Position numbers and translations under genes: made by a program
Shown: piece by piece, positions 28,882 to 64,000 of the stretch
How positions within the stretch are numbered: position 1 is the first letter of the stretch
Layout of the letters: each line of letters starts with the position of its first letter
Notes under the pieces: model-generated
Seen by the model: only the letters and a program-made list of their open reading frames with translations
What the model was told of the DNA's origin: nothing
Database searches by the model: none
Source of the DNA: Escherichia phage ECML-1
Sequence record: OL631478.1
DNA: 64,000 bases
Direction: 5' to 3' (one strand)

Positions 28882-30018
28882 TTATTCGTAGTCTCGAATA
28901 ACTAACCCAACAGGGAACTGTAAAGAACCTTTACGAGTCATCTTCTGGAACTGAACCGTCAAAGGTTTCCCGATAAACTCTTCAGGATGTTCAGCAAGAT
29001 ACTGTTTCTTCTCATGAGTAGTCTTCCATGAGACATCTACAAAGACGTTAGGAAGAGTCTCTACAACGAACTTGCCATGACCACGTTTATCAGTCTTTAC
29101 ACCAGTCACTTTAAACTCTTCAGTGTGCATCTTCTTGTGCTTAATCAAGAAGTATGAACGGTGACAACACTCATAGAAGGAGTCTTCAGAGATTGAACGG
29201 TACATTGCGCCTTCAAACTTAGCTTCAACCCACTTATCATGAGCTTCATCAAACTCTTCCCAAGAGTTAACACGACGAGATTTAACAGGGACAACTTTAC
29301 AGCCATCTCTAAAGTCATTCAATGGTGAAGTCTCAATAATATCTCTACGCTCAGGCCACGTCTTAGTACTATCACAGATATCATACCAGTAGAACTTAAG
29401 TAAGTGTCTGTCAGGATTGTCTTCATTTTTAATCATGGAGACAATATCTTCTAAGTCCCACCCATGAGCATAAATCTCTCCATCAAATTCATCAACATCT
29501 TTGTGGAGCCTTAACATTGCCATAATGTCGGGTATTAGTTCAGTAGGGATTTTATAAACAGTATTCTCACGAGAGTATGCTGTGAATACACTACCAATGC
29601 TTAAGTGTCTTGAAATTCTACAACGGACACCATCAAGTTTTGGTTGAGCATCAGCAGGGAACTTCAAATACTTTGCATGGCTAACCTTTGCAGCATCATG
29701 AGCAAGCTGTACACCCACCTTCTCAGTATTCTGTGCAGACTCTTTTGTGTAAGCATAACCTTTACGGTCAACTTGCTTTTTATACTTAGCAGCAACTTCA
29801 AAGAGAGCTTGCTGTTCAGCGTTACGCTCATTCTTTTTACCGATGTTTTTAGGTTCTGCTGTATACTCTTCAAACATCATCTTGCCATTTTCTTTACCAT
29901 AGGTTGTAATAACTTTGTCACCTACAGCAACACATGACCAGACGTTGAAGGAACCGTCTTTATTTTGTTTGTACAGAATTGTCATTTTTATTCCTCTGAG
30001 TGATACCAAGTATTGCAA
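28882..30018 (-). CDS. ATP-dependent DNA ligase
   Basis: Adenylation motif I PKLDGVRC (KxDG), ~378 aa, adjacent to replication genes. Confidence 0.8.
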   Translation of the reverse strand: MQYLVSLRGIKMTILYKQNKDGSFNVWSCVAVGDKVITTYGKENGKMMFEEYTAEPKNIGKKNERNAEQQALFEVAAKYKKQVDRKGYAYTKESAQNTEKVGVQLAHDAAKVSHAKYLKFPADAQPKLDGVRCRISRHLSIGSVFTAYSRENTVYKIPTELIPDIMAMLRLHKDVDEFDGEIYAHGWDLEDIVSMIKNEDNPDRHLLKFYWYDICDSTKTWPERRDIIETSPLNDFRDGCKVVPVKSRRVNSWEEFDEAHDKWVEAKFEGAMYRSISEDSFYECCHRSYFLIKHKKMHTEEFKVTGVKTDKRGHGKFVVETLPNVFVDVSWKTTHEKKQYLAEHPEEFIGKPLTVQFQKMTRKGSLQFPVGLVIRDYE

Positions 30019-30179: not shown

Positions 30180-30478
30180 TTTCTCTTACCACCAATCTCT
30201 ACGTCGATAACTTGAACATCGCCAGCAACATCAAACTTATGAATGATGCTTTCAGCAGTGTAAGTCCAACCATCAATGCGAACCAACTCACCTTCTCGTG
30301 GGACGATTGGATTACGTTGAGCTATGGTTGCAGTGGAGTGAACAACGTCATAACGATAGATATAGTTTACTAGGACTTCCATCGTGAAAACCTCACTCAA
30401 TAACCGTAGTATGTGATTGACCATTTTTGCCGTAGCTATAAGATGTTGTTGTTTGAGAGTTTGGACATCTGACAACAA
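30176..30478 (-). CDS. Hypothetical protein (likely true start at internal ATG ~30382 with GAGG RBS)
   Basis: ORF in dense minus-strand operon; longest version overlaps upstream lipoprotein gene, shorter 68-aa version does not. Confidence 0.35.
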   Translation of the reverse strand: MLSDVQTLKQQHLIATAKMVNHILRLLSEVFTMEVLVNYIYRYDVVHSTATIAQRNPIVPREGELVRIDGWTYTAESIIHKFDVAGDVQVIDVEIGGKRK

Positions 30479-30653
30479 TAATATCCCTACTTATAGCATC
30501 ACCATGTAACTTGTATACTCTGCAATCTTGCATCTCTGGTGGGAGACTGTAAGAAGCATTTTTATCTTCATAAGAAGGGTTGCAGCCAGATAGAAAAATA
30601 ACACCAAGTGCAATTACTGCTTTCCACATAATACTCACCCTATTACTGTTCAC
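30393..30653 (-). CDS. Putative lipoprotein (likely start at 30629, MWKAVIALGVIFLSGC)
   Basis: Signal peptide with lipobox LSGC; GGTGAG RBS upstream of internal Met. Confidence 0.5.
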   Translation of the reverse strand: MNSNRVSIMWKAVIALGVIFLSGCNPSYEDKNASYSLPPEMQDCRVYKLHGDAISRDIIVVRCPNSQTTTSYSYGKNGQSHTTVIE

Positions 30654-31090: not shown

Positions 31091-33790
31091 TTAGTGAACC
31101 TCAAGCCAGCTTTTACCAACCTTACCAGTACCTGTAACAAGCGTTTCTTTCTTAAGACCTAAGTTCTTAGAAGCTTGTCCATAATACCAGTCAGTAACTG
31201 CTTTCACTTCTGCCGTCATACTTTCTGGACATTCCCAACTCGTCTCGTCGTGATATGCGCAGAGTAAACGAGCACCAATAGCTGGTTTACGCCCATTTAA
31301 CTTCATTAAGCCTTCGTCAATCATACGACGGCAAGCAAGGTTAATTGCCTCATTTTGAATCTGAGCCTCTGAACCCATGAGCAAATAATTCAACAGCTTA
31401 TGCGGAGATTTACACCACAACCAAGCTCCAGCAACCTTTACAAAACCCCCTTTAGAGATTGCAGCAGTCTTACCAAACACCTCTTCAAGTGCCTTTTTAG
31501 TTGCTTTGTAGTCAGCTTCCAAGTCATCTAACAGCTTCTTAATTTTAGGCAAACGTATAAAGTAAGTCTGTTTAGTCAGCGCACCTTCCTTAGTAGTCGC
31601 AGCTTTAATCGTCTTAGCAAACTTCTCATCACCTGCACCGAACAGCAGTGCATAGATACCATTCTTAGCTTTCTTACGACCTTTGCTAATCTCATGAAGA
31701 AGATTCTCATCCTGAGTAGCTCGACAAGTCAAGATGTCCTGCTCATCATTCAAGCTAAAGTAAATACTGTTCAGTGTATGTGCATCAGTTCCTGAATAGA
31801 CAACGTACAGGTCATTCTCAGAGTCATAGCGAAGGTACTTATCAATCTCTGGGTTGAGGTACTCATCAAAGTGTTTGCAGTAATAGCGTCCATCTTCTTG
31901 ACGAATGAACTCAATTTCTTCTTTACCTTGCGTTACCGCTTTGGTGAAGTCTTTATCACCCATAAAGTTACAAAGTAGAACTAGCTGGGCTGAGTTCATA
32001 TCTACAGAGACAACGTTAGTACCTTCCTCACAAATCCACACTGCCCTCATTGGTTCCCCATAGACAGCAGCACCAGACGGTACGTTTACAATACCATATT
32101 GTGTCATACGTCCAGTTGAAGTACCAAACACCATTGCACCAGCACTAAGGCGACCATCAGGACGAATCTGGTTCAACCAACCTTTTTCATCATCCTTTGA
32201 GTTCTCAATAGTTCTGCGTCGGTGCATCAAAGTATAGTACTTAGCAATCTTCTGTCCAAGCTCACCTTCAATCGTATCATAAGATGATTCAGTAAGTTTT
32301 GGTGAAGTACGGATTAAGCAAGGCTCAAGCAAATCTGTGTACTTCTTCACAGACCAGTTATGCTCAATGTACTGTACACCTTCATGTTCAACATAGCTCA
32401 AACCACACCGCTCAACCATTTCCTGCCACTTAGGATGTTTTGTAATCATCTTTTTATTGTCTTTGAAACGACAAACTTTGACAGGGCGACCGTCTGAGTC
32501 TTTCTTGTAGTTCCAGTCATCTGGAATCCAACCAACTGATTTCAAGTAGTCTTTAACAACTGCTACCTGAGTCATACGAGAAACTTCAAAATCAATTGGT
32601 GTATATGGTGCATCAATCAAACCTGTGTAGCGACTTGACTCAAGCTCAAAGTGGTTAACAACGTGACTGTTATAGTACTTCACAGTTTTGACTGTTTTCA
32701 CTGGCTTCCAGTCTTTGCATTTCTTACCAATCTTTGCATTCAACTCATTGCAAATTGCACGAGCATCCTTCATTGCTACAAAGCCTTCCTTGTACTCTTC
32801 ACCAGTTACAGAGTTGGTTGGTGTATAGCAATTCCTCTTTTCAATGTTAAAAATCTTTGTAGTTGGCTTACCAAATGGTTTGATTTCGTATGTCTGCATC
32901 TCACCGTTACGCACCTGTTGACGGTACTTCGTCTTAGGATACTTGGTGATTCTCTTCAACCCATCTGCATGACCAAATGTTTCAACATACTCATTCCAAG
33001 CCTTTGCAAACTCTTCACCAGTTACTTTACCTTTGGTCTTAATAGTTGGAGGTAGATGTGGTTCAACCTCTGAAGCAAGCTCATTAGTCAACTTGTCAAG
33101 TTCCTTTACATGGAACTCCATAAGCTCTTTATCAGCTTTCCAACCATTGATAGCTTGCTGGCTCATCCAGAAAGATGTTTCTTTAGCTCGCATGTAGGTT
33201 TCATAAGTATCTATGCCACACTTCTTAAGCTTGAGATACTCATTATCAAGTGCCCGTTTAGTTTTGGCGTTAATACGGATATCTTCTACAACACGAGTGA
33301 AGATTTCTGCATTCCACACACCCCAATGTTCAATCTCTGGTTTACGAACACCAACACGAGCACCCCATGCAGCCAAACCATGAGCACCTTTATAACCCTT
33401 TGGAGTTGGTCTATCCATCCACTGAACACGAGACTGGATAAGAGAATCCTGAAAGAAATTACTCCACGGTTTACACTTTGGGTTATCAAAGTTCCATAAA
33501 TCAGGTGCAATGTGATTGAAAACCCACCAGTCATAACCGAGACCGTTATGGATGCAAAGACGTTTTGCCTTTAACGCAAACTCAATACCTTCACGTAAGC
33601 CACCCTTGATGTACTTGGTGTACTTGTGACCGAGAATAGGTTCATCTGTAAAGACCCATACAGGTGGCTCTTCATCGTCAGATTTATAGTCTGCGAAAGC
33701 CATTACGTGCACTTTAGTGAACTCAAGGAGTAAACCATCAGTTTCTGTATCACCAACTAAATGTAAGTTTTTAAAATCTACGTTTTCCAT
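31091..33790 (-). CDS. DNA polymerase, family A, with 3'-5' exonuclease domain (start at MENVDF, GAGGGAG RBS)
   Basis: Exo I motif LVGDTETDGL; motif B-like RATQDENL...KxxxNGIYALLFG; motif C LLCAYHDETSWE. Confidence 0.85.
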   Translation of the reverse strand: MENVDFKNLHLVGDTETDGLLLEFTKVHVMAFADYKSDDEEPPVWVFTDEPILGHKYTKYIKGGLREGIEFALKAKRLCIHNGLGYDWWVFNHIAPDLWNFDNPKCKPWSNFFQDSLIQSRVQWMDRPTPKGYKGAHGLAAWGARVGVRKPEIEHWGVWNAEIFTRVVEDIRINAKTKRALDNEYLKLKKCGIDTYETYMRAKETSFWMSQQAINGWKADKELMEFHVKELDKLTNELASEVEPHLPPTIKTKGKVTGEEFAKAWNEYVETFGHADGLKRITKYPKTKYRQQVRNGEMQTYEIKPFGKPTTKIFNIEKRNCYTPTNSVTGEEYKEGFVAMKDARAICNELNAKIGKKCKDWKPVKTVKTVKYYNSHVVNHFELESSRYTGLIDAPYTPIDFEVSRMTQVAVVKDYLKSVGWIPDDWNYKKDSDGRPVKVCRFKDNKKMITKHPKWQEMVERCGLSYVEHEGVQYIEHNWSVKKYTDLLEPCLIRTSPKLTESSYDTIEGELGQKIAKYYTLMHRRRTIENSKDDEKGWLNQIRPDGRLSAGAMVFGTSTGRMTQYGIVNVPSGAAVYGEPMRAVWICEEGTNVVSVDMNSAQLVLLCNFMGDKDFTKAVTQGKEEIEFIRQEDGRYYCKHFDEYLNPEIDKYLRYDSENDLYVVYSGTDAHTLNSIYFSLNDEQDILTCRATQDENLLHEISKGRKKAKNGIYALLFGAGDEKFAKTIKAATTKEGALTKQTYFIRLPKIKKLLDDLEADYKATKKALEEVFGKTAAISKGGFVKVAGAWLWCKSPHKLLNYLLMGSEAQIQNEAINLACRRMIDEGLMKLNGRKPAIGARLLCAYHDETSWECPESMTAEVKAVTDWYYGQASKNLGLKKETLVTGTGKVGKSWLEVH

Positions 33791-33962
33791 TTTTACTCCC
33801 TCTAAAATCATTAACCTCATACATTACTGCAAAAAATTATAAAAAGCAAGTTGACAATGCACTTGACAAGGTGTTAATCTTTGCGAAGTGGGTTTTTACT
33901 TAAAAGGTTACTTAACAGTTTAACTATACAGATACTTTAAAACTCTTAAAAGATTATTTAAT

Positions 33963-56432: not shown

Positions 56433-58799
56433 ATGCGCATGGTAAACGACCACGCAGAAGTGATTAAGAGTTCAACTTCTTTAGAGACGTCTCAAGCACA
56501 GATTACAATGACACCTGAGATGTTCAGCCTTTTGAGTTCTGGTGTATATACCTTTAAAGAAAGGGCAGTGATTCGTGAACTGTCATGTAACGCAGTAGAT
56601 GCTCAGAAAGAAGCTGGAAAAGAGAACATCCCATTCCATGTGCATTTACCTACTCGTTTTGAGCCTTACTTCGAAGTTCGTGATTTTGGAACTGGATTGA
56701 CTCATGATAAAGTTATGAGTTTGTACCTAAACTATGGAGCTTCTACGAAGAATGACTCTAATGACTACATTGGTGCAATGGGTATCGGCTCAAAGTCACC
56801 ATTTGCAATTGCTCAGTCATTCACAGTATCTAGCTATGTTGATGGTGTTGTTAATAAGTACTCTGTTTATCTTGAGAATGGTATCCCTCAAGTAACTAAG
56901 CTGACAACTAACCCAACAAAAGAACCTAATGGTTTAGCTGTACGTGTGGCGGTTGCTGACCACCGTATCTCAAAGTTCTTTGAAGAAGCTGGGAATGTGT
57001 ACTCATACTTCACTGTAAAACCAGAAAGTAATATTGAGTACGACGATGTATTAGCAGATATGAACGTCATTGCCCGTGAAGAAGGTGTTTATGATGCCAT
57101 GATTCATAAGCACAGCTGGCGTTCTAGTGATAACAGGACAGAGTTTAATGTGGTGATGGGTAACATTGCCTACCCTGTTAACATGGAAGCATTACTTGGT
57201 GATGATTTCTTCAAAGTATTGCCAGAATTTTTCCGTAGGAGCGTAGACCTTGTAAACATCTACATGCCTATTGGTTCAGTCGCTATTGCAGCTTCTCGTG
57301 AAGCATTGCAGATGAATGACACGACAAAAAATGTTATCATTGAGGCTACTAAAAAGATAACTGAAGCAATTACAAAGGATGTTATCAAGAAAGTTAACAG
57401 TCAACCTACACTCATGGATGCTGCACAGGCTTATGCTGAGTTACGTTTGAACTCACGAGAGATGTTTAATGCTGTGTGTCCAAAGTTAGAGTGGGGAGGC
57501 GTTAAGCTTGATTCTCTGGAAGAAGAATTACTAAACATTCGTCGTGGAATTATCTACGCAGAAGACGGCTCAGTCATTTATGAACGTGACGGTAAAGGTA
57601 ATATTAAGGTTGATAGGAACGGAAACAACATCCCTAAAGTAGATTATCTTTATGACCCAGTTGCTTATGTCAAGTTCAACTCTTTAGAGAGTAAGATTCG
57701 TGCAACAGCACTTTCCTACACTCAAGAGGCAAGTATGTTCAATATCTTTGGCGCAATGCGTAAAAGCCAAATTGAACAGTTTTTGTTTGTTATAAATGAC
57801 CGTCGCAATAAAAATGGTACTGAGAAGACTGTAGGACGCAACCAAATCTTGCGTGGTGCATGTCGAGACTATGCCAGTGAGTCAAGTCTGTTTCACAGAT
57901 ACAATGGTATTGTCTTTGTATTCTCGACTGAAAAAGAGTTAGATGACTTAATCAATCTGCACAAACTTGATAAAAGCTTGTTAAAGATTGTGAAAATGTC
58001 TGATAAGGAACACCATTACCAGCGTAAAGAAGCTGTAAGAGGTGTTGTAAAACTCTGGAAAGCTGTTCCAGCAGAAGGTGTAGCTTCCTATAAAGAGGTT
58101 TCAGAGGACTTTGATACAATTGAAGAGCCTCAGCTTTACATTAAGGCAGTTGGTGATACAGTTGATGGTAGATGTTTTTGCTCATCTCCAGAAGATGTAG
58201 CTAAGTCAGTTGCTAATGTTACAGGTAAGACAGTCTATGTTTTCCGAAAAGCAAATTGGAAAAAGATACCAGAAGATTGGATTGAAGTAGATGAGAAACT
58301 CTTGAACGACAGCTTAACTGATGTTCACTGGATTAACCATAACAGATATATGACGCGTATCTATATGAATGGTGTCCTTGACCTTACAAGCAGTTGGATT
58401 ATTGCCAGAAACTTTACGTTTAATAACAGGAAGATTTCTCGCGGGTATTGTTATTCAAGGGATACTATTAAGACAATCTTCTTAGAAGGGAATGAAGATG
58501 CTGTTGAGGCAATGTTTGGTAAGATTCAGTATGTGGCTGCACCGTTTGCATACACTTACACTATCAGTGTTCTTCAGGATTTGAAGTCATGCCTTGATAA
58601 TGACACAAAACTGTACAAAAAGATTAAGAAAGCAGGTGACCGCATGGTTATCAAGCTGACAAACTATCTTTCAAAAAGAAAACAAGAAAACTTCTTGCTT
58701 TCACACTTAGATTGGAATAAAGTATCACCTATCGAAGTGAGTAAGTTTTTAGGCTTTGATGTGAAGTGTGTTCCAGAAGGGACTACAATTTACGATTAA
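56433..58799 (+). CDS. rIIA: rIIA-like protein
   Basis: N-terminal region FSLLSSGVYTFKERAVIRELSCNAVDA resembles T4 rIIA N-terminus (from memory); 788 aa; followed by rIIB-like gene. Confidence 0.65.
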   Translation: MRMVNDHAEVIKSSTSLETSQAQITMTPEMFSLLSSGVYTFKERAVIRELSCNAVDAQKEAGKENIPFHVHLPTRFEPYFEVRDFGTGLTHDKVMSLYLNYGASTKNDSNDYIGAMGIGSKSPFAIAQSFTVSSYVDGVVNKYSVYLENGIPQVTKLTTNPTKEPNGLAVRVAVADHRISKFFEEAGNVYSYFTVKPESNIEYDDVLADMNVIAREEGVYDAMIHKHSWRSSDNRTEFNVVMGNIAYPVNMEALLGDDFFKVLPEFFRRSVDLVNIYMPIGSVAIAASREALQMNDTTKNVIIEATKKITEAITKDVIKKVNSQPTLMDAAQAYAELRLNSREMFNAVCPKLEWGGVKLDSLEEELLNIRRGIIYAEDGSVIYERDGKGNIKVDRNGNNIPKVDYLYDPVAYVKFNSLESKIRATALSYTQEASMFNIFGAMRKSQIEQFLFVINDRRNKNGTEKTVGRNQILRGACRDYASESSLFHRYNGIVFVFSTEKELDDLINLHKLDKSLLKIVKMSDKEHHYQRKEAVRGVVKLWKAVPAEGVASYKEVSEDFDTIEEPQLYIKAVGDTVDGRCFCSSPEDVAKSVANVTGKTVYVFRKANWKKIPEDWIEVDEKLLNDSLTDVHWINHNRYMTRIYMNGVLDLTSSWIIARNFTFNNRKISRGYCYSRDTIKTIFLEGNEDAVEAMFGKIQYVAAPFAYTYTISVLQDLKSCLDNDTKLYKKIKKAGDRMVIKLTNYLSKRKQENFLLSHLDWNKVSPIEVSKFLGFDVKCVPEGTTIYD

Positions 58800-58878: not shown

Positions 58879-59988
58879 ATGACTACTAAAACTAAAGCAC
58901 AGATTGACGCAGAAATTTACAAACTGGTTAAAGAAGGTAAGCTGACCAAAACAGCTATTGCACAGAAATTTAACACTTCAACCCGTTCAGTTGGTCGTGC
59001 TGTAGAGCGTCATGAAGCAACCTTAAAAGGGAAGAAGAAGGTGACTTCTACACCAGCTACGAAGACTTTGAAGCAAGTTGCTAAGACTTTTAAAAAGAAA
59101 GCTGGCAAACCAGTTGAAAAGGTCGTTAAAGACGCTGTACAGAAAGCTCCAGTAAATAAACTGCACGAAGCTATGCAGAAAGATGACAAGATTGAGTACA
59201 TGATTACTGGTGATTCTGTAATTATGACTTATGGTTCAGAATCTGAAATTGTTGAGTCTACTCATCCGAACTATCAAGAGATTGTAGTTCATGTTGTGAA
59301 AGGTGAGTTCAAGAAAGCATTTGAACTGATGAACATTCGTAAGTCTATCGAAAACTTCACTCAGGGTGCTATCACAATCAAAGGCGACAAGCTATTCTAC
59401 GGTGCTGTTGAGATGCGTTCTACTCTGGTTGACCGTATTCTTCACATGATGAAAACTGGCGATAAAGGTTTTGAACGACTTGTAATGTTCTTCGAAAAAC
59501 TGATGGAAAACCCATCTAAAGATTCTGTAGAACAACTTTGGGGATTTGTATCTCACCTTGATGTTGAAATTGATGAAGAAGGCTACATCATTGGTTGGAA
59601 GAAAGTCTCTACTCGTGAAGGCAAGCTGGTTGACTCTCACACCTACAAAGTGCCTAATGATTTGGGTAACATTGTAGAAATGCCACGTTGGATGGTTGAT
59701 AATAACCGTAACGTAACTTGCTCTCAAGGTCTTCATGTTGGTGCTTGGGATTATGTTCGTTGCTTCTCAGGTGATACAATCCTGAAGGTTCGCGTACATC
59801 CACGAGATGTTGTATCTGTTCCAACTGATTACAACGATATGAAGATGCGTTCCTCTCGTTATGAAGTTGCAGCAATCGTTGATAATCAACGTAAAGTGCT
59901 GGAAGCATGGGACGGTAAGACTGAAGCTTTGCATGTCATCGTTGGCACTGCTGGTGAACTCATCTCTCAACGTAAACGTGAAATCTAA
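58879..59988 (+). CDS. rIIB: rIIB-like protein
   Basis: 369 aa gene immediately downstream of rIIA-like gene; N-terminal HTH-like segment; assignment by synteny. Confidence 0.5.
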   Translation: MTTKTKAQIDAEIYKLVKEGKLTKTAIAQKFNTSTRSVGRAVERHEATLKGKKKVTSTPATKTLKQVAKTFKKKAGKPVEKVVKDAVQKAPVNKLHEAMQKDDKIEYMITGDSVIMTYGSESEIVESTHPNYQEIVVHVVKGEFKKAFELMNIRKSIENFTQGAITIKGDKLFYGAVEMRSTLVDRILHMMKTGDKGFERLVMFFEKLMENPSKDSVEQLWGFVSHLDVEIDEEGYIIGWKKVSTREGKLVDSHTYKVPNDLGNIVEMPRWMVDNNRNVTCSQGLHVGAWDYVRCFSGDTILKVRVHPRDVVSVPTDYNDMKMRSSRYEVAAIVDNQRKVLEAWDGKTEALHVIVGTAGELISQRKREI

Positions 59989-60004
59989 TAAGTAATTTCT
60001 TAAA

Positions 60005-60028
60005 AGGCTGCTTCGGCGGCCTTTTTTA
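60005..60028 (+). terminator. Rho-independent terminator
   Basis: AGGCTGC-TTCG-GCGGCCT hairpin followed by TTTTTT; consensus TATAAT -10 box 24 nt downstream at 60052-60057. Confidence 0.6.
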
Positions 60029-60088
60029 TTTGTATTTTGTGCAGAGTGCTGTATAATTGTTGTCACGATAAACTAAACAGGAGAACCA

Positions 60089-60637
60089 ATGAAGAAATTG
60101 ATTCTAGGTTTGTGCTTAATGTTTACAGCACACTTATCTTATGCAGTTGACTGCCCAGAGCTATCAATTAGCCAAAAAGTGAACATGTTAAAAGCTTACC
60201 AGTATGGTGAGAATAACATGGGGAAAGGTTGGGGTATCACTCTAGCAGCTATAGCCTTACAAGAGTCAGAGTTAGGTCTGAAGGTAGAAAATAAAAAGAC
60301 CCATGACTATGGTATCTTCCAGAATCACTTGAAGACTGTTGTAAAGCGTAACAAAATTAGTCCTAATGTTGCTAAAAAGAAACTCTTAAAAGATTTTGAC
60401 TATGCCGCAAAAGAAACACATAAAGAGCTTGAGTTTTGGACGAAGGTACATGGTCACCCAAAGTCAAAGAAGACTTTACAAAAAGTTTTAGCATCATATA
60501 ATGCTGGGTATTCGTACAGAATCCCTAAAGCTAAGAAATACTCTCAAGATGTCTATAACAATATGAAAGTTATCGCTCAATGTGAATTTGCAACAAACAT
60601 TTCTAAGGTAAATCATGAAAAAATTAAGAAAGTCTGA
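60089..60637 (+). CDS. Secreted lytic transglycosylase (SLT-domain)-like protein
   Basis: Signal peptide MKKLILGLCLMFTAHLSYA; AIALQESELG...YGIFQ resembles SLT catalytic ES...GxxQ motif. Confidence 0.5.
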   Translation: MKKLILGLCLMFTAHLSYAVDCPELSISQKVNMLKAYQYGENNMGKGWGITLAAIALQESELGLKVENKKTHDYGIFQNHLKTVVKRNKISPNVAKKKLLKDFDYAAKETHKELEFWTKVHGHPKSKKTLQKVLASYNAGYSYRIPKAKKYSQDVYNNMKVIAQCEFATNISKVNHEKIKKV

Positions 60638-61310
60638 TGAAGTCCTGTGCCACGCTTATGACTTGCATCCTCATGAGTTAGGTCTTGATTCCTGTGTATG
60701 GACTCCAGAACAGTGCAGAGATTTTGAAGACACTGCAAGAGAGGTTGTATGTTCACTTGAAGAGTTCCACACATCAGAACCCATTGTGAACGTTGTGGAC
60801 AAAGAGACTGGACAAACTATAGGTGTAAGGCGTGATAGTTTAGTGATAGTCAATAAAGACCTTGTAGAAAAAGGTAACCTCATCTTAGCAGATATTGATG
60901 GTGTTCTTACAAATTTTAATCACGAAGATTGCTCAACGGAATTGACTGATGGGTCATTCTCACAGTACACTAATCTTCTTGATTCTGTAAGAGCAAAACC
61001 AACATATGTTTTCAACATTATTGATGCAATTGCAAATCATGCAGCAGTTGGACTCTTGACAGCAAGAGGTGAATCTCAGAGAATACCTACTGAGATGTTT
61101 TTAAGGCACAATATAGAGCATGATTACTTGCTTTTTATGCGTGGTTTTGGAACTAACTCTATAAGTGCAGAAAGTTTGAAAGTGAGGATGATTCAGTCTT
61201 GCATTCTTCCTTACTTTAATATAGTATGCTTTATAGAAGATACAGAGAAGAATGTTCAGAAGGTAAACAGAATCCTTCCACACATTAAAACTATGTTAGT
61301 TAAACATTGA
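60615..61310 (+). CDS. Hypothetical protein
   Basis: 231 aa ORF. Confidence 0.45.
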   Translation: MKKLRKSDEVLCHAYDLHPHELGLDSCVWTPEQCRDFEDTAREVVCSLEEFHTSEPIVNVVDKETGQTIGVRRDSLVIVNKDLVEKGNLILADIDGVLTNFNHEDCSTELTDGSFSQYTNLLDSVRAKPTYVFNIIDAIANHAAVGLLTARGESQRIPTEMFLRHNIEHDYLLFMRGFGTNSISAESLKVRMIQSCILPYFNIVCFIEDTEKNVQKVNRILPHIKTMLVKH

Positions 61311-61786
61311 GAGAAGAACTTATGAACAATATCATTACGGTAGCACTGGACGATACGGCAAACAAATCTGAAGTAGTTCGTAAAATGATTCAAGGTAACT
61401 TTGAAGGTAAAATTTTCCGTGCTGTTAATGTAAAAGCTGATGGTAGCATTCGCGAATATCGTGCATTGTTGAACGTTAAGAAGCACGTAAAAGGTGTTGG
61501 TTCAACGACTGCACACAAAGAAAACCTGATGACTATCTATGATATGGGTAAGGCTTCAGAGTTAGGTGCTGAAGGTATCGTTAAAGAAGGTGCTCCGTAT
61601 CGCTCTTTCAATCTGGAAACTACTCTTATGCTTTCCTTTACAAGTGGTTCCAAAACAATCACTTATCTCTTTACTGATGCTGCAACGGTATCTGCTATTA
61701 AGGATAGCACTGTCAAAGCTGGCGTAGTTGCTGCTGCAAAAGCTTCTTCGATGGCTGCGAATATCCTTGCTAAAGTCCTCGGTTAA
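61307..61786 (+). CDS. Hypothetical protein (likely start ATG 61322)
   Basis: ORF followed by strong terminator. Confidence 0.45.
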   Translation: MREELMNNIITVALDDTANKSEVVRKMIQGNFEGKIFRAVNVKADGSIREYRALLNVKKHVKGVGSTTAHKENLMTIYDMGKASELGAEGIVKEGAPYRSFNLETTLMLSFTSGSKTITYLFTDAATVSAIKDSTVKAGVVAAAKASSMAANILAKVLG

Positions 61787-61797
61787 GGTTAAGATAC

Positions 61798-61819
61798 AGG
61801 CTCCTTCGGGAGCCTTTTT
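61798..61819 (+). terminator. Rho-independent terminator
   Basis: AGGCTCC-TTCG-GGAGCCT hairpin followed by TTTTT. Confidence 0.65.
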
Positions 61820-61838
61820 CATTTTAGGAGATTGTTAA

Positions 61839-62186
61839 ATGACATTTAAAGAGTTCTGTCAAGCTACTTTCATAATTGTTTTCTTAGTTGGGGCAGGTGT
61901 CTGGGGAGGATACTCTTACAGAGACTACCAAGTTGCTGAAACTGAGCTAAATAATGAGAAGCTGATAAGTGTTGCTAAAGATGCTTATCAGGAAGGTTTA
62001 GCCACACTCAGCACCAATTACAAAAATGATTTGAAAGACGTGCTTGCTAAGAATAAGCATACAAAAGAGGTACTAACGTATGAAAAGACTAAGCCAGAGT
62101 TTTATAATGTTTGTGTTACTGATAATTATGTCAGGGTGTTCAACGAACAAAGTGAACAGTACATTCAAAAACTCCCAAGTAAGTGA
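61839..62186 (+). CDS. Membrane-anchored protein, candidate i-spanin
   Basis: N-terminal TM FIIVFLVGAGVWGGY then coiled-coil-like region; 3' end overlaps a lipoprotein ORF in another frame. Confidence 0.4.
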   Translation: MTFKEFCQATFIIVFLVGAGVWGGYSYRDYQVAETELNNEKLISVAKDAYQEGLATLSTNYKNDLKDVLAKNKHTKEVLTYEKTKPEFYNVCVTDNYVRVFNEQSEQYIQKLPSK

Positions 62187-62349
62187 GAGTGACAAGTACA
62201 CTCAAGAAGAATCAAGATTCACTGTCAAAGGTAATACTGGTAGTGATGTGGCAGCAGCCCTTGAGTTTTATCGTGATGGTTTTTACCAGTGCACAATCAA
62301 AGCTAATAACCTTATTGATATGATTTTATTAGGAAACAAACAGCAATGA
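62080..62349 (+). CDS. Lipoprotein, candidate o-spanin
   Basis: AAAGAGGT RBS 8 nt upstream of ATG; signal peptide with lipobox IIMSGC; starts inside upstream gene in +1 frame. Confidence 0.45.
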   Translation: MKRLSQSFIMFVLLIIMSGCSTNKVNSTFKNSQVSESDKYTQEESRFTVKGNTGSDVAAALEFYRDGFYQCTIKANNLIDMILLGNKQQ

Positions 62350-62615
62350 CAGAGAATGAAGACACTTTCTATGTAGAAGGGTACTTACTGCTACCACGAC
62401 CAAAAGAAACTTATATGCGGGTTGATTTCTCACCAACCATTATGGATAACGTGATGTGTCATATCTTTATGCAAGGTGTCACAGCACAGCTTAAGCATGT
62501 TGGTAAAGAGTGCAAAATAAAGGTTGACACTCATCCAGAAATCAAAGAGAATCACTACACATGGTTCTTACCAGACTCTAAAGAAATCTTAGCAGTTCTC
62601 AAAACGAGGAAGTAA
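62346..62615 (+). CDS. Hypothetical protein
   Basis: 89 aa ORF, ATGA-coupled. Confidence 0.4.
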   Translation: MTENEDTFYVEGYLLLPRPKETYMRVDFSPTIMDNVMCHIFMQGVTAQLKHVGKECKIKVDTHPEIKENHYTWFLPDSKEILAVLKTRK

Positions 62616-62617
62616 CT

Positions 62618-62941
62618 ATGCAGATTAATGGAAGAGACTTTGTAGCCGTTTACTACGAGAAAGATAAAGAAGTTGGCGTAGCACAAGTATCTTATGGCAA
62701 TGGTAAGTGGTTGTATGGGACAATCGCAGTAGTTGGAACAAGAAGTGATACAAAAACTTTTAAAGATTGTGTTGACCTTCTTGAAGAATCCATCCAGAAT
62801 CATTGGTGTCTGATATGGATGACTGACAACGAAGTGATAGAACGTTTCAAAAAGATTGATATCAACATTGACAGTATTGAGCATGTTGATTTATATGAGC
62901 TAACTGAGAAGGTAAACTATGAAAGCTCTAGAGGTAATTGA
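62618..62941 (+). CDS. Hypothetical protein
   Basis: 107 aa ORF. Confidence 0.4.
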   Translation: MQINGRDFVAVYYEKDKEVGVAQVSYGNGKWLYGTIAVVGTRSDTKTFKDCVDLLEESIQNHWCLIWMTDNEVIERFKKIDINIDSIEHVDLYELTEKVNYESSRGN

Positions 62942-63146
62942 TAAAGACACTGGAGAAGTTACATCAGCATGTGTTTTCGTTAGTGACGACACAGTGATAC
63001 CGTTTTACAATCTCGATAACTTTAGTTTCACAGGGATAACTCCAGAAGAATACTTTGAAGACCTCACCTTTGCCAGAATTTCTATAGATACATTTTATAA
63101 ATGCTTCTATGATGAAGGCAAAGAATTACGAGAAACTGAACTATAA
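62919..63146 (+). CDS. Hypothetical protein
   Basis: 75 aa ORF. Confidence 0.35.
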   Translation: MKALEVIDKDTGEVTSACVFVSDDTVIPFYNLDNFSFTGITPEEYFEDLTFARISIDTFYKCFYDEGKELRETEL

Positions 63147-63158
63147 GGTGTATATTAT

Positions 63159-63359
63159 ATGGCTGACTTCTGCAAAGACTGTTCTATCGAAATGTTCGGA
63201 CGTGATACAGGTGACTTAAAAGGTCTTATCACTGAAGATGACTTTAAAGCTGGCTATGCAATGCCAGTAATCTGTGAAGGTTGCGGGTGTATCTGGGTAG
63301 ACCACGAAGGACAACGTGTAAAACCTTCAGAAGATAAAGAATCTTGGGAGAGATGTTAA
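63159..63359 (+). CDS. Small zinc-ribbon protein
   Basis: 66 aa with CKDC...CEGCGC. Confidence 0.4.
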   Translation: MADFCKDCSIEMFGRDTGDLKGLITEDDFKAGYAMPVICEGCGCIWVDHEGQRVKPSEDKESWERC

Positions 63360-64000
63360 ATGGGTATTGTAAAAGTTGTAAAAGGTAACTTACTGGCTGC
63401 CTTCAAAAACACAGATATTGAGTTAATTGCTCATGGTTGCAACTGTCGTAACCTCATGGGTGCTGGAATCGCTCAAAAAATTGCTAAGATTTTCCCAAAA
63501 GCTGAAGAAGCTGACCGGAAATTCCATAAAAAGTTTGGCTACAGTGCTCATGATATCGGATACCAGATGGTTGGTGAGGTGTCACATGCTCGAACGGAGT
63601 ATGGTTACATTTTTAACCTATATACACAGTTGGATGTTGGGAAGTGTGCATCATACCGATACTTAGTGGAGTCACTAGAAAAACTCCGTAAATTTTGCTG
63701 GCTGCACAACATTCGTAAGATTGGTTTACCCATGATTGGGGCAGGTATAGGCGGTTTAGATGCACAAGCTGTGAAAAGCCTCATTAATAGTGTTATGTAT
63801 AACGTTGATGTGTACCTCTACGTCTATGATGAAGCAATGGCAAGTGTAGTTACCCCTAAGTATGCTACCTCAGCACCACAATTCTATGATGGTGTCGTGC
63901 TAAGTGACGGGAAGACTAATCAAGTTACCCTCTATCAGCTTGTTGATGGCAAGGTTGAGGTTAGTTACCCTCTGGTTAGTGAGATGGGTATGTGTAACAG
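63360..64000 (+). CDS. Macro-domain protein (ADP-ribose binding/processing), 3'-partial
   Basis: ELIAHGCNCRNLMGAGIAQKIAKIF and LPMIGAGIGGL match macro-domain glycine-rich motifs; open frame from ATG at 63360 to window end. Confidence 0.65.
   Translation, partial: MGIVKVVKGNLLAAFKNTDIELIAHGCNCRNLMGAGIAQKIAKIFPKAEEADRKFHKKFGYSAHDIGYQMVGEVSHARTEYGYIFNLYTQLDVGKCASYRYLVESLEKLRKFCWLHNIRKIGLPMIGAGIGGLDAQAVKSLINSVMYNVDVYLYVYDEAMASVVTPKYATSAPQFYDGVVLSDGKTNQVTLYQLVDGKVEVSYPLVSEMGMCN

Follow-up and report, generated by a model that had tools for sequence, protein, structure and literature searches.

Two overlapping genes occupy positions 61839–62349 on the plus strand of the window, by which we mean the whole 64,000-nt stretch of Escherichia phage ECML-1 (sequence record OL631478.1) that was analysed. 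The first, a candidate i-spanin gene (61839–62186), starts with ATG and encodes 115 aa; the second, a candidate o-spanin gene (62080–62349), also starts with ATG and encodes an 89-aa precursor of a 70-aa mature lipoprotein. The first-pass annotation had claimed an overlapped i-spanin/o-spanin pair here, and the claim agrees with a published catalogue, GenBank annotation, PHROG matches, and our tests of conservation and context. Both reading frames were found exactly as it had given them, with the second starting inside the first in the +1 frame.

A nucleotide search with the region 60000–63400 matched 257 phage records, the closest of which are the O157 typing phages 8, 11 and 12, wV8, EC6, and BPS17L1 (95–97% nucleotide identity); by sequence similarity, the window is assigned to a Felixounavirus genome. 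Upstream of the pair lie rIIA (56433–58799), rIIB (58879–59988), a gene for a secreted lysozyme-like protein (60089–60637), the polynucleotide kinase gene (60615–61310), and a conserved hypothetical gene that ends at 61786, and small hypothetical genes follow on the 3' side of the pair. The pair sits in this rIIA–rIIB–polynucleotide kinase region, right behind a terminator hairpin. The hairpin (61798–61815, plus strand; AGGCTCC-TTCG-GGAGCCT followed by a T-run) resembles a Rho-independent terminator, and the wV8 and Mordin records carry a terminator annotation for the same element. Between its end and the start codon of the i-spanin gene there are 23 nt, so transcription of the pair must either read through it or use an unrecognised promoter. 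Transcription of Felix O1 ORF 6 was reported to peak at 25 min, which puts it in one class with the lysin gene ORF 35 (Whichard et al. 2010), and by gene order counted from rIIA as 1, ORF 6 is probably the i-spanin gene. The two genes were not recognised in that paper, whose text mentions neither Rz1 nor a lipoprotein.

The protein encoded at 60089–60637 had been described as a secreted SLT-domain protein. It does have a Sec-type signal peptide, but the SLT domain was not confirmed: the match to the Pfam SLT model (E=9e-4) scores 19.2 bits, below the cut-off of 21.3 bits. The protein carries E-S, GIFQ, and YNAG-like motifs and belongs to phrog_600, a family with no assigned function. The endolysin of phage Bas63 is annotated at 76395–76859, and since Bas63 coordinates are nearly collinear with those of the window, this gene would lie about 14 kb 3' of the spanin pair, past the end of the window. 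With the recognised endolysin of the genus that far away, the pair stands here without a lysis cassette, and the holin/endolysin linkage that is supportive, but not obligatory, for spanin genes is absent from the pair in Felixounavirus. A local lysis cassette made up of the 60089–60637 protein and the pair was considered and rejected, because the recognised endolysin lies elsewhere and phrog_600 carries a label without function. In the genome papers of Moogle and Mushroom, the counterparts of both genes were called spanins and the lysis genes were described as scattered.

Features of the i-spanin and o-spanin genes

The operational definition of a two-component spanin used here is that of Summer et al. 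2007 and Kongari et al. 2018, which asks for a small i-spanin with one transmembrane segment at the N-terminus and a periplasmic C-terminal domain, a lipoprotein with a signal peptidase II signal and no Asp at +2, genes arranged together on one strand, and at least one periplasmic cysteine. The i-spanin gene is preceded by the Shine-Dalgarno sequence AGGAG (61826–61830, plus strand) with an 8-nt spacer to the start codon, and the same ribosome-binding site is given for Felix01 and JH2 in the supplement of Kongari et al. 2018 (BMC Bioinformatics 19:326; PMC6139136). Hydropathy analysis of the 115-aa product located its maximum at residues 6–24 (FCQATFIIVFLVGAGVWGG; codons 61854–61910, plus strand), the most hydrophobic 19-mer of the protein with a mean Kyte-Doolittle value of 1.75. 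The N-terminal transmembrane anchor claimed for this reading frame is supported by this peak, and the hydrophobic segment is kept in all eight aligned homologues. The C-terminal domain of 88 aa is polar, contains a single cysteine (C92), and by sequence-based prediction is mostly helical. The protein is small, with a single transmembrane segment at its N-terminus, and the predicted topology is that of a type II inner-membrane protein (N-in, C-out), which would place the C-terminal domain in the periplasm. Cys92 (codon 62112–62114, plus strand) is the only periplasmic cysteine and forms an invariant column of the i-spanin alignment. A homodimer-disulfide role of periplasmic cysteines has been reported from lambda and T4 work (PMC6139136), and by analogy Cys92 would be the site of such a disulfide.

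The i-spanin assignment draws on a match to PHROG 1152, "Rz-like spanin" (E=8e-42), on 98–100% identity in tblastn to Felixounavirus proteins annotated as i-spanin, and on the GenBank annotation itself. The coiled-coil-like domain that had been proposed behind the anchor was not recovered: when the periplasmic domain was scanned for heptad a/d positions, the score was 4/8, a value reached by 93% of shuffles, and the table of Kongari et al. lists 0 coiled coils for the i-spanins of Felix01 and wV8 (PMC6139136).

Translation of the o-spanin gene would start from the Shine-Dalgarno sequence AAAGAGGT (62064–62071, plus strand), which lies within the i-spanin coding sequence, contains GAGGT, and stands 8 nt before the ATG, in keeping with the strong ribosome-binding site noted earlier. 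The same GAGGT is given for the EC6 o-spanin in the supplement of Kongari et al. (PMC6139136) and is annotated as a ribosome-binding site in the Mordin record. The N-terminus of the precursor, MKRLSQSFIMFVLLIIMSGC, consists of a basic n-region, an uncharged h-region, and the lipobox Met-Ser-Gly-Cys (62128–62139, plus strand), in which Cys20 (62137–62139) is the predicted lipidation site. The next residue, at +2, is Ser21 and not the Asp retention signal, so that the predicted signal is of the outer-membrane sorting type. Signal peptidase II is predicted to cleave between MKRLSQSFIMFVLLIIMSG and CS, with Cys20 and Ser21 both invariant. The earlier description of this product as a lipoprotein with the lipobox IIMSGC is in agreement with these features. 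Met stands at -3, where the strict consensus calls for [LVI], and Kongari et al. give IMSG/C as the lipobox of the JH2 o-spanin family (PMC6139136).

To place this signal against the background of the whole window, a lipoprotein-signal filter was applied in all six frames to 1389 start-to-stop ORFs with a length of at least 40 aa. Just two distinct ORFs passed, 62080–62349 on the plus strand and 30393–30653 on the minus strand, which argues that the lipobox is not a chance pattern. The listing of ORFs of at least 50 aa around ORF 30393–30653 contains no overlapping or adjacent membrane-anchored partner for it, and no other spanin candidate turned up in the window.

The 70-aa mature o-spanin contains 0 Pro and one further cysteine, Cys71 (codon 62290–62292, plus strand), which is the sole cysteine of the mature domain besides the lipidated one and is invariant in the family. 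Each protein of the pair has one invariant periplasmic cysteine, C92 in the i-spanin and C71 in the o-spanin, through which a disulfide may form. Some helix and strand are predicted for the o-spanin in the secondary-structure table of Kongari et al. (PMC6139136). The protein matches phrog_4180 (E=9e-51), a family without a function label, and more weakly phrog_456, "Rz-like spanin" (E=6e-5); tblastn showed complete identity (100%) with the o-spanin of BPS17L1 and the protein of EC6. Single-sequence AlphaFold2 models of the two proteins were of low confidence (mean pLDDT 48.7 and 53.7), and profile searches of PDB sequences gave nothing significant. The o-spanin profile aligned with the N-termini of BamD and BamE at E=0.02–0.1, covering the signal and lipobox segment only.

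The dual-coding overlap and its conservation

The o-spanin gene overlaps the i-spanin gene on the same strand by 107 nt (62080–62186, plus strand), beginning 241 nt into the i-spanin reading frame. In the i-frame, the overlap encodes the C-terminal 35 codons of the i-spanin and the stop codon, and in the +1 frame it encodes the signal peptide, the lipobox, and the first mature residues of the o-spanin. To compare the two frames, the 511-nt locus was aligned without gaps between the window and seven genomes of Felixounavirus, Suspvirus, and Mooglevirus (79–98% identity), and both reading frames are intact in all eight. In the segment that encodes only the i-spanin (alignment positions 1–241), 72 of 241 sites vary (29.9%), and 40 of these are at the third position of the i-frame. 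The overlap (242–348) is the least variable of the three segments, with 20 variable sites in 107 (18.7%) that are spread over the codon positions as 5/6/9 without marked bias. In the segment that encodes only the o-spanin (349–511), 62 of 163 sites vary (38.0%), with 41 at the third position of the o-frame, and past the i-spanin stop codon synonymous changes outnumber non-synonymous changes in the o-frame only. This pattern of third positions by segment is that expected if both frames are constrained, and purifying selection on both frames is shown by the alignment.

Within the overlap, the string TGTTCAACG encodes Cys-Ser-Thr when read in the o-frame and x-Phe-Asn-x when read in the i-frame; since one string codes for both, the lipidated cysteine and the conserved FN motif of the i-spanin share nucleotides. 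The string is identical in 6 of 8 loci, counting the window and the seven loci outside Felixounavirus described below, and phiEco32 has TGTTCAATG (Cys-Ser-Met). In the seven loci whose codons were read here (Yersinia P778 being left out), the i-spanin residue before the Phe is Val, Leu, or Met, all from NTG codons.

The conservation of the pair extends well beyond the genus. A tblastn search returned 402 phage records for the i-spanin and 319 for the o-spanin. Seven loci outside Felixounavirus were analysed, namely those of SUSP1, Hafnia Zyzzx, Erwinia phiEa21-4, Yersinia P778, Pectobacterium Arno162, phiEco32, and Proteus Isfahan, and a +1-frame overlapped pair with an overlap of 107–143 nt is present in each of them. 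The SUSP1 proteins are 76% (i-spanin) and 80% (o-spanin) identical to those of the window, and in the six more distant phages the identity falls to 21–35% for the i-spanin and 27–47% for the o-spanin. Across eight homologues, the invariant residues are G24, E82, K83, C92, Y97, F101, and N102 in the i-spanin and C20, S21, G54, C71, N76, and L78 in the o-spanin. Conserved motifs are EKTKPxFxNxC..Y..FNE in the former and EFYRDxYxxC..xNxLID in the latter.

These data bear on whether the second reading frame is real. If ORF 62080–62349 were a chance, untranslated frame, only the 115-aa membrane protein would be a true product, and the annotation record lends this some colour: several GenBank records omit the o-spanin reading frame, truncate it at the 5' end, or label it hypothetical, and one paper states that phage vB_Si_DR094 has an i-spanin only. 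Inspection of vB_Si_DR094 revealed a full o-spanin reading frame with its lipobox intact, and the "missing" o-spanin of this phage is an annotation artefact. Against a chance frame also stand the 41 of 62 variable sites at the o-frame third position past the i-spanin stop codon, the preservation of the frame, its lipobox Cys-Ser, and C71 at 27–47% identity in the six distant phages, and its own GAGGT with an 8-nt spacer. Given the codon-position pattern and the depth of conservation, we consider a spurious second reading frame exceedingly improbable, and the analysis confirms the upstream start as the correct one for the o-spanin, a protein that many Felixounavirus records shorten or call hypothetical.

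Relation to catalogued and tested spanins

The pair is already known: it has stood in a published spanin census since 2018 (PMC6139136), and many GenBank records name the two products as i-spanin and o-spanin. Since the pair had been catalogued and annotated before, its detection here is a rediscovery. In the census, one i-spanin family and one o-spanin family, both named after JH2, comprise the proteins of EC6, FO1a, FSL_SP-010/012/107, Felix01, Moogle, Mushroom, UAB_Phi87, and wV8, and the i-spanin family also takes in phiEco32-like phages (PMC6139136). Felix01, wV8, JH2, and EC6 all fall in the class "ovl", their i-spanin genes measuring 348 nt and the overlaps 107 nt, and for the first three the census gives protein lengths of 115 aa for the i-spanin (88 aa of it periplasmic) and 89 aa for the o-spanin (70 aa when mature), a single periplasmic cysteine in each protein, and no coiled coil (PMC6139136). 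The supplement row for EC6 gives the lipobox as IMSG before the cysteine, together with the same two ribosome-binding sites as in the window (PMC6139136). The o-spanin of the window agrees at every residue with the EC6 sequence given in that supplement, and its i-spanin differs by 1–2 residues from the printed EC6, JH2, and Felix01 sequences.

Comparison with the Felix O1/JH2 family revealed the same genes throughout, with 98–100% identity for the i-spanin and 94–100% for the o-spanin (EC6, wV8, and BPS17L1); by sequence similarity, the pair falls within this family (94–100% in tblastn). The family agrees with the window in protein lengths, lipobox, number of cysteines, +1 overlap, and the two ribosome-binding sites; itself defined by computation only, it differs from the window by a few substitutions. 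According to Kongari et al., essentially all experimental spanin work has been done on lambda, and these authors themselves tested T4 spanins and lipobox variants of phage T1 gp11 only (PMC6139136). Our literature search for spanin experiments on Felix O1, SUSP1, and Felixounavirus (complementation, deletion, lipid labelling, and localisation) returned annotations only. The discovery value of the locus is little and its practical value modest; Felix O1-like phages are used in biocontrol of Salmonella and E. coli, for which a complete inventory of lysis genes is useful.

To relate the pair to tested spanins, both proteins were compared with Pfam and NCBIfam, in which no spanin family was matched beyond sub-threshold noise, and neither the lambda Rz (Phage_lysis) nor the Rz1 family was matched in the Pfam scan at E<=1. 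Alignment of the family profiles with T4 PseT.3 and PseT.2 by hhalign gave probabilities of 0.4% and 4.3% over only 14 and 13 columns, which correspond to the anchor and lipobox segments. No homology to T4 PseT.3/PseT.2 was detected, as no similarity extends beyond these segments. By its definitional features the pair is classified as a spanin, yet at the level of sequence it belongs to a family separate from those of lambda and T4.

In architecture, the pair resembles lambda Rz/Rz1 in combining a type II inner-membrane protein with an outer-membrane lipoprotein whose gene lies in the +1 frame, in having periplasmic cysteines for homodimer disulfides, and in its presumed role in outer-membrane disruption. 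Lambda Rz1 is wholly embedded in Rz, whereas the o-spanin gene here overlaps the i-spanin gene and runs past its stop codon. The Felix O1-type pair also differs from lambda in having no predicted coiled coil and no Pfam Rz/Rz1 match and in lying outside a lysis cassette. Lambda Rz1, at 40 aa, is short and proline-rich, in contrast to the 70-aa, proline-free mature o-spanin here. Rz1 has been described as unstructured (PMC6139136).

The likeness to T4 PseT.3/PseT.2 lies mainly in location, neither pair being linked to holin or endolysin and each having a polynucleotide kinase gene (pseT) close by, with the proven T4 spanins away from t and e (PMC6139136). Both o-spanins exceed Rz1 in size, and secondary structure is predicted for them (PMC6139136). 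The T4 genes are "separated", with a 4-nt junction, whereas those described here overlap by 107 nt, and the periplasmic cysteines number 0 in the T4 i-spanin and 2 in the T4 o-spanin, compared with 1 and 1 here. The LysB/LysC pair of P2 is part of a lysis cassette. It shares the overlapped architecture class with the pair in the window and is assigned to a different sequence family in the tables of Kongari et al. (PMC6139136).

Proposed mode of action and competing readings

Taken as a whole, the pair is very probably the two-component spanin of a Felix O1-like myophage, with overlapped architecture. If lambda Rz/Rz1 and T4 PseT.3/PseT.2 are taken as models, the i-spanin would insert into the inner membrane, the 70-aa mature o-spanin would reside in the inner leaflet of the outer membrane, and their C-terminal domains would bind each other across the periplasm. 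Homodimers may be held together through the single conserved periplasmic cysteine of each protein (C92 in the i-spanin and C71 in the o-spanin). After the peptidoglycan mesh has been cleared by holin and endolysin, the spanin complexes would be freed and would disrupt the outer membrane, or fuse it with the inner one, and lysis would be complete.

Several features were counted against the spanin reading, namely the lack of homology to tested spanins, the lack of a coiled coil, the proline-free o-spanin, the absence of an adjoining holin or endolysin here, and the terminator hairpin directly upstream. The pair might instead have another job in the envelope, such as superinfection exclusion or envelope protection, with early or middle expression from the rII region. 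Its place in the rIIA–rIIB–polynucleotide kinase region, with the endolysin some 14 kb away, would suit such a role, as would the lack of homology to experimentally tested spanins and of coiled-coil and proline-rich features. Small phage lipoproteins with exclusion roles do exist, as in T5 Llp and Cor. However, the proven spanins of T4 are likewise unlinked from t and e and lie beside pseT, so the location of the pair is no argument against a function in lysis, and no other spanin candidate turned up, the lipoprotein-like ORF 30393–30653 on the minus strand having no overlapping or adjacent membrane-anchored partner among the listed ORFs of 50 aa or more.

The gene order in distant relatives weighs further against a role outside lysis. 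In Yersinia P778 and Pectobacterium Arno162, the homologous pair begins 8 to 44 nt past the end of the endolysin gene, which matches phrog_7 in both phages (E=3e-54 and 1e-41, respectively). In Proteus Isfahan, a holin gene (phrog_198) comes first, followed by an 86-aa ORF that matches no family, then an endolysin-like gene, and last the pair. The position directly behind the endolysin in these three phages ties the family to lysis independently of its name, and with this linkage in relatives we regard a non-lysis envelope function as quite improbable and retain the spanin reading.

Within the spanin reading, a further proposal is that the Felix O1-type pair constitutes a mechanistically distinct class of two-component spanins, which we consider doubtful, though it merits mention. 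If it were true, membrane bridging or fusion might differ from that of lambda Rz-Rz1, and the timing could differ too. The traits behind this proposal are the lack of a predicted coiled coil together with a proline-free o-spanin that is partly helical in the table of Kongari et al., the one invariant cysteine in each protein, the tie between x-Phe-Asn and Cys-Ser-Thr through TGTTCAACG, and the location of the pair in the rII/pseT region, where it follows a terminator and has no linkage to holin or endolysin.

Annotation of spanin genes in related and distant phages

In many GenBank records, the o-spanin start is placed 3' of the signal peptide and lipobox, or the gene is called hypothetical. 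Among loci from other phage records, the annotated homologues of the ECML-1 o-spanin gene (62080-62349) lie at L003 3305-3484, L015 1805-2011, L016 1549-1767, L017 1573-1767, and L018 914-1111. The last of these loci belongs to vB_Si_DR094, which is said to carry an i-spanin only (PMC8300805). Analysis of its genome revealed a complete o-spanin ORF of 89 aa (L018 842-1111) with the lipobox TMSGC. Because the full ORF and its lipobox are intact there, the reported absence of the o-spanin from this phage is an annotation artefact.

In four more distant phages, one member of the overlapped pair either lacks an annotation or has its start misplaced. The i-spanin of Yersinia phage P778 (L008 2778-3143) and the o-spanin of Proteus phage Isfahan (L009 3001-3240) are unannotated, while the annotated o-spanins of Pectobacterium phage Arno162 (L010 3001-3276) and phiEco32 (L005 3179-3439) are truncated. 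In all four phages, the full-length ORFs encode a membrane anchor or a lipobox.

Genomic neighbourhood of the spanin pair

Comparison of the window (polynucleotide kinase gene, 60615-61310; spanin pair, 61839-62349) with the pseT to pseT.3 region of T4 (L011 3003-4782) revealed two features common to T4 and the Felix O1-like phages: the polynucleotide kinase gene is located within about 1 kb of the spanin pair, and the pair is far from the holin and endolysin. No homology was detectable between the Felix O1-like and T4 spanin proteins, and the shared proximity of kinase and spanin genes may reflect either common ancestry of the neighbourhood or coincidence. The spanin pair is among the genes downstream of strong terminator-like hairpins, one of which (61798-61815, +) lies directly 3' of the gene preceding the pair, with another (60002-60025, +) directly 3' of rIIB.

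The ORF at 60089-60637 (+) shares its last 23 nt with the polynucleotide kinase gene and encodes a secreted lysozyme-like protein of 182 aa, with a Sec-type signal peptide (MKKLILGLCLMFTAHLSYA, followed by VD) and the lysozyme-like motifs ALQESELG, GIFQ, and SYNAGYSY. Its Pfam SLT score is sub-threshold (19.2 bits against a cut-off of 21.3), and it falls in phrog_600, a family without assigned function. Labels given to its homologues in relatives range from 'putative lysin' and 'lysozyme-like domain' to 'hypothetical protein'. The product is a putative exported muralytic-like protein encoded in the early/middle region.

A second ORF with a lipoprotein signal

Besides the o-spanin gene, the only ORF in the window that passed the lipoprotein-signal filter was 30393-30653 (-), with the signal …AVIALGVIFLSGC-N and a product of 78-86 aa, depending on the start chosen. 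It is located between a DNA ligase-like ORF (28882-30018) and a DNA polymerase ORF (31091-33820), and a listing of ORFs of 50 aa or more at that locus showed no overlapping or adjoining membrane-anchored partner. The product matches phrog_902 (E=4e-17), which has no assigned function, and might be an exclusion-type lipoprotein.
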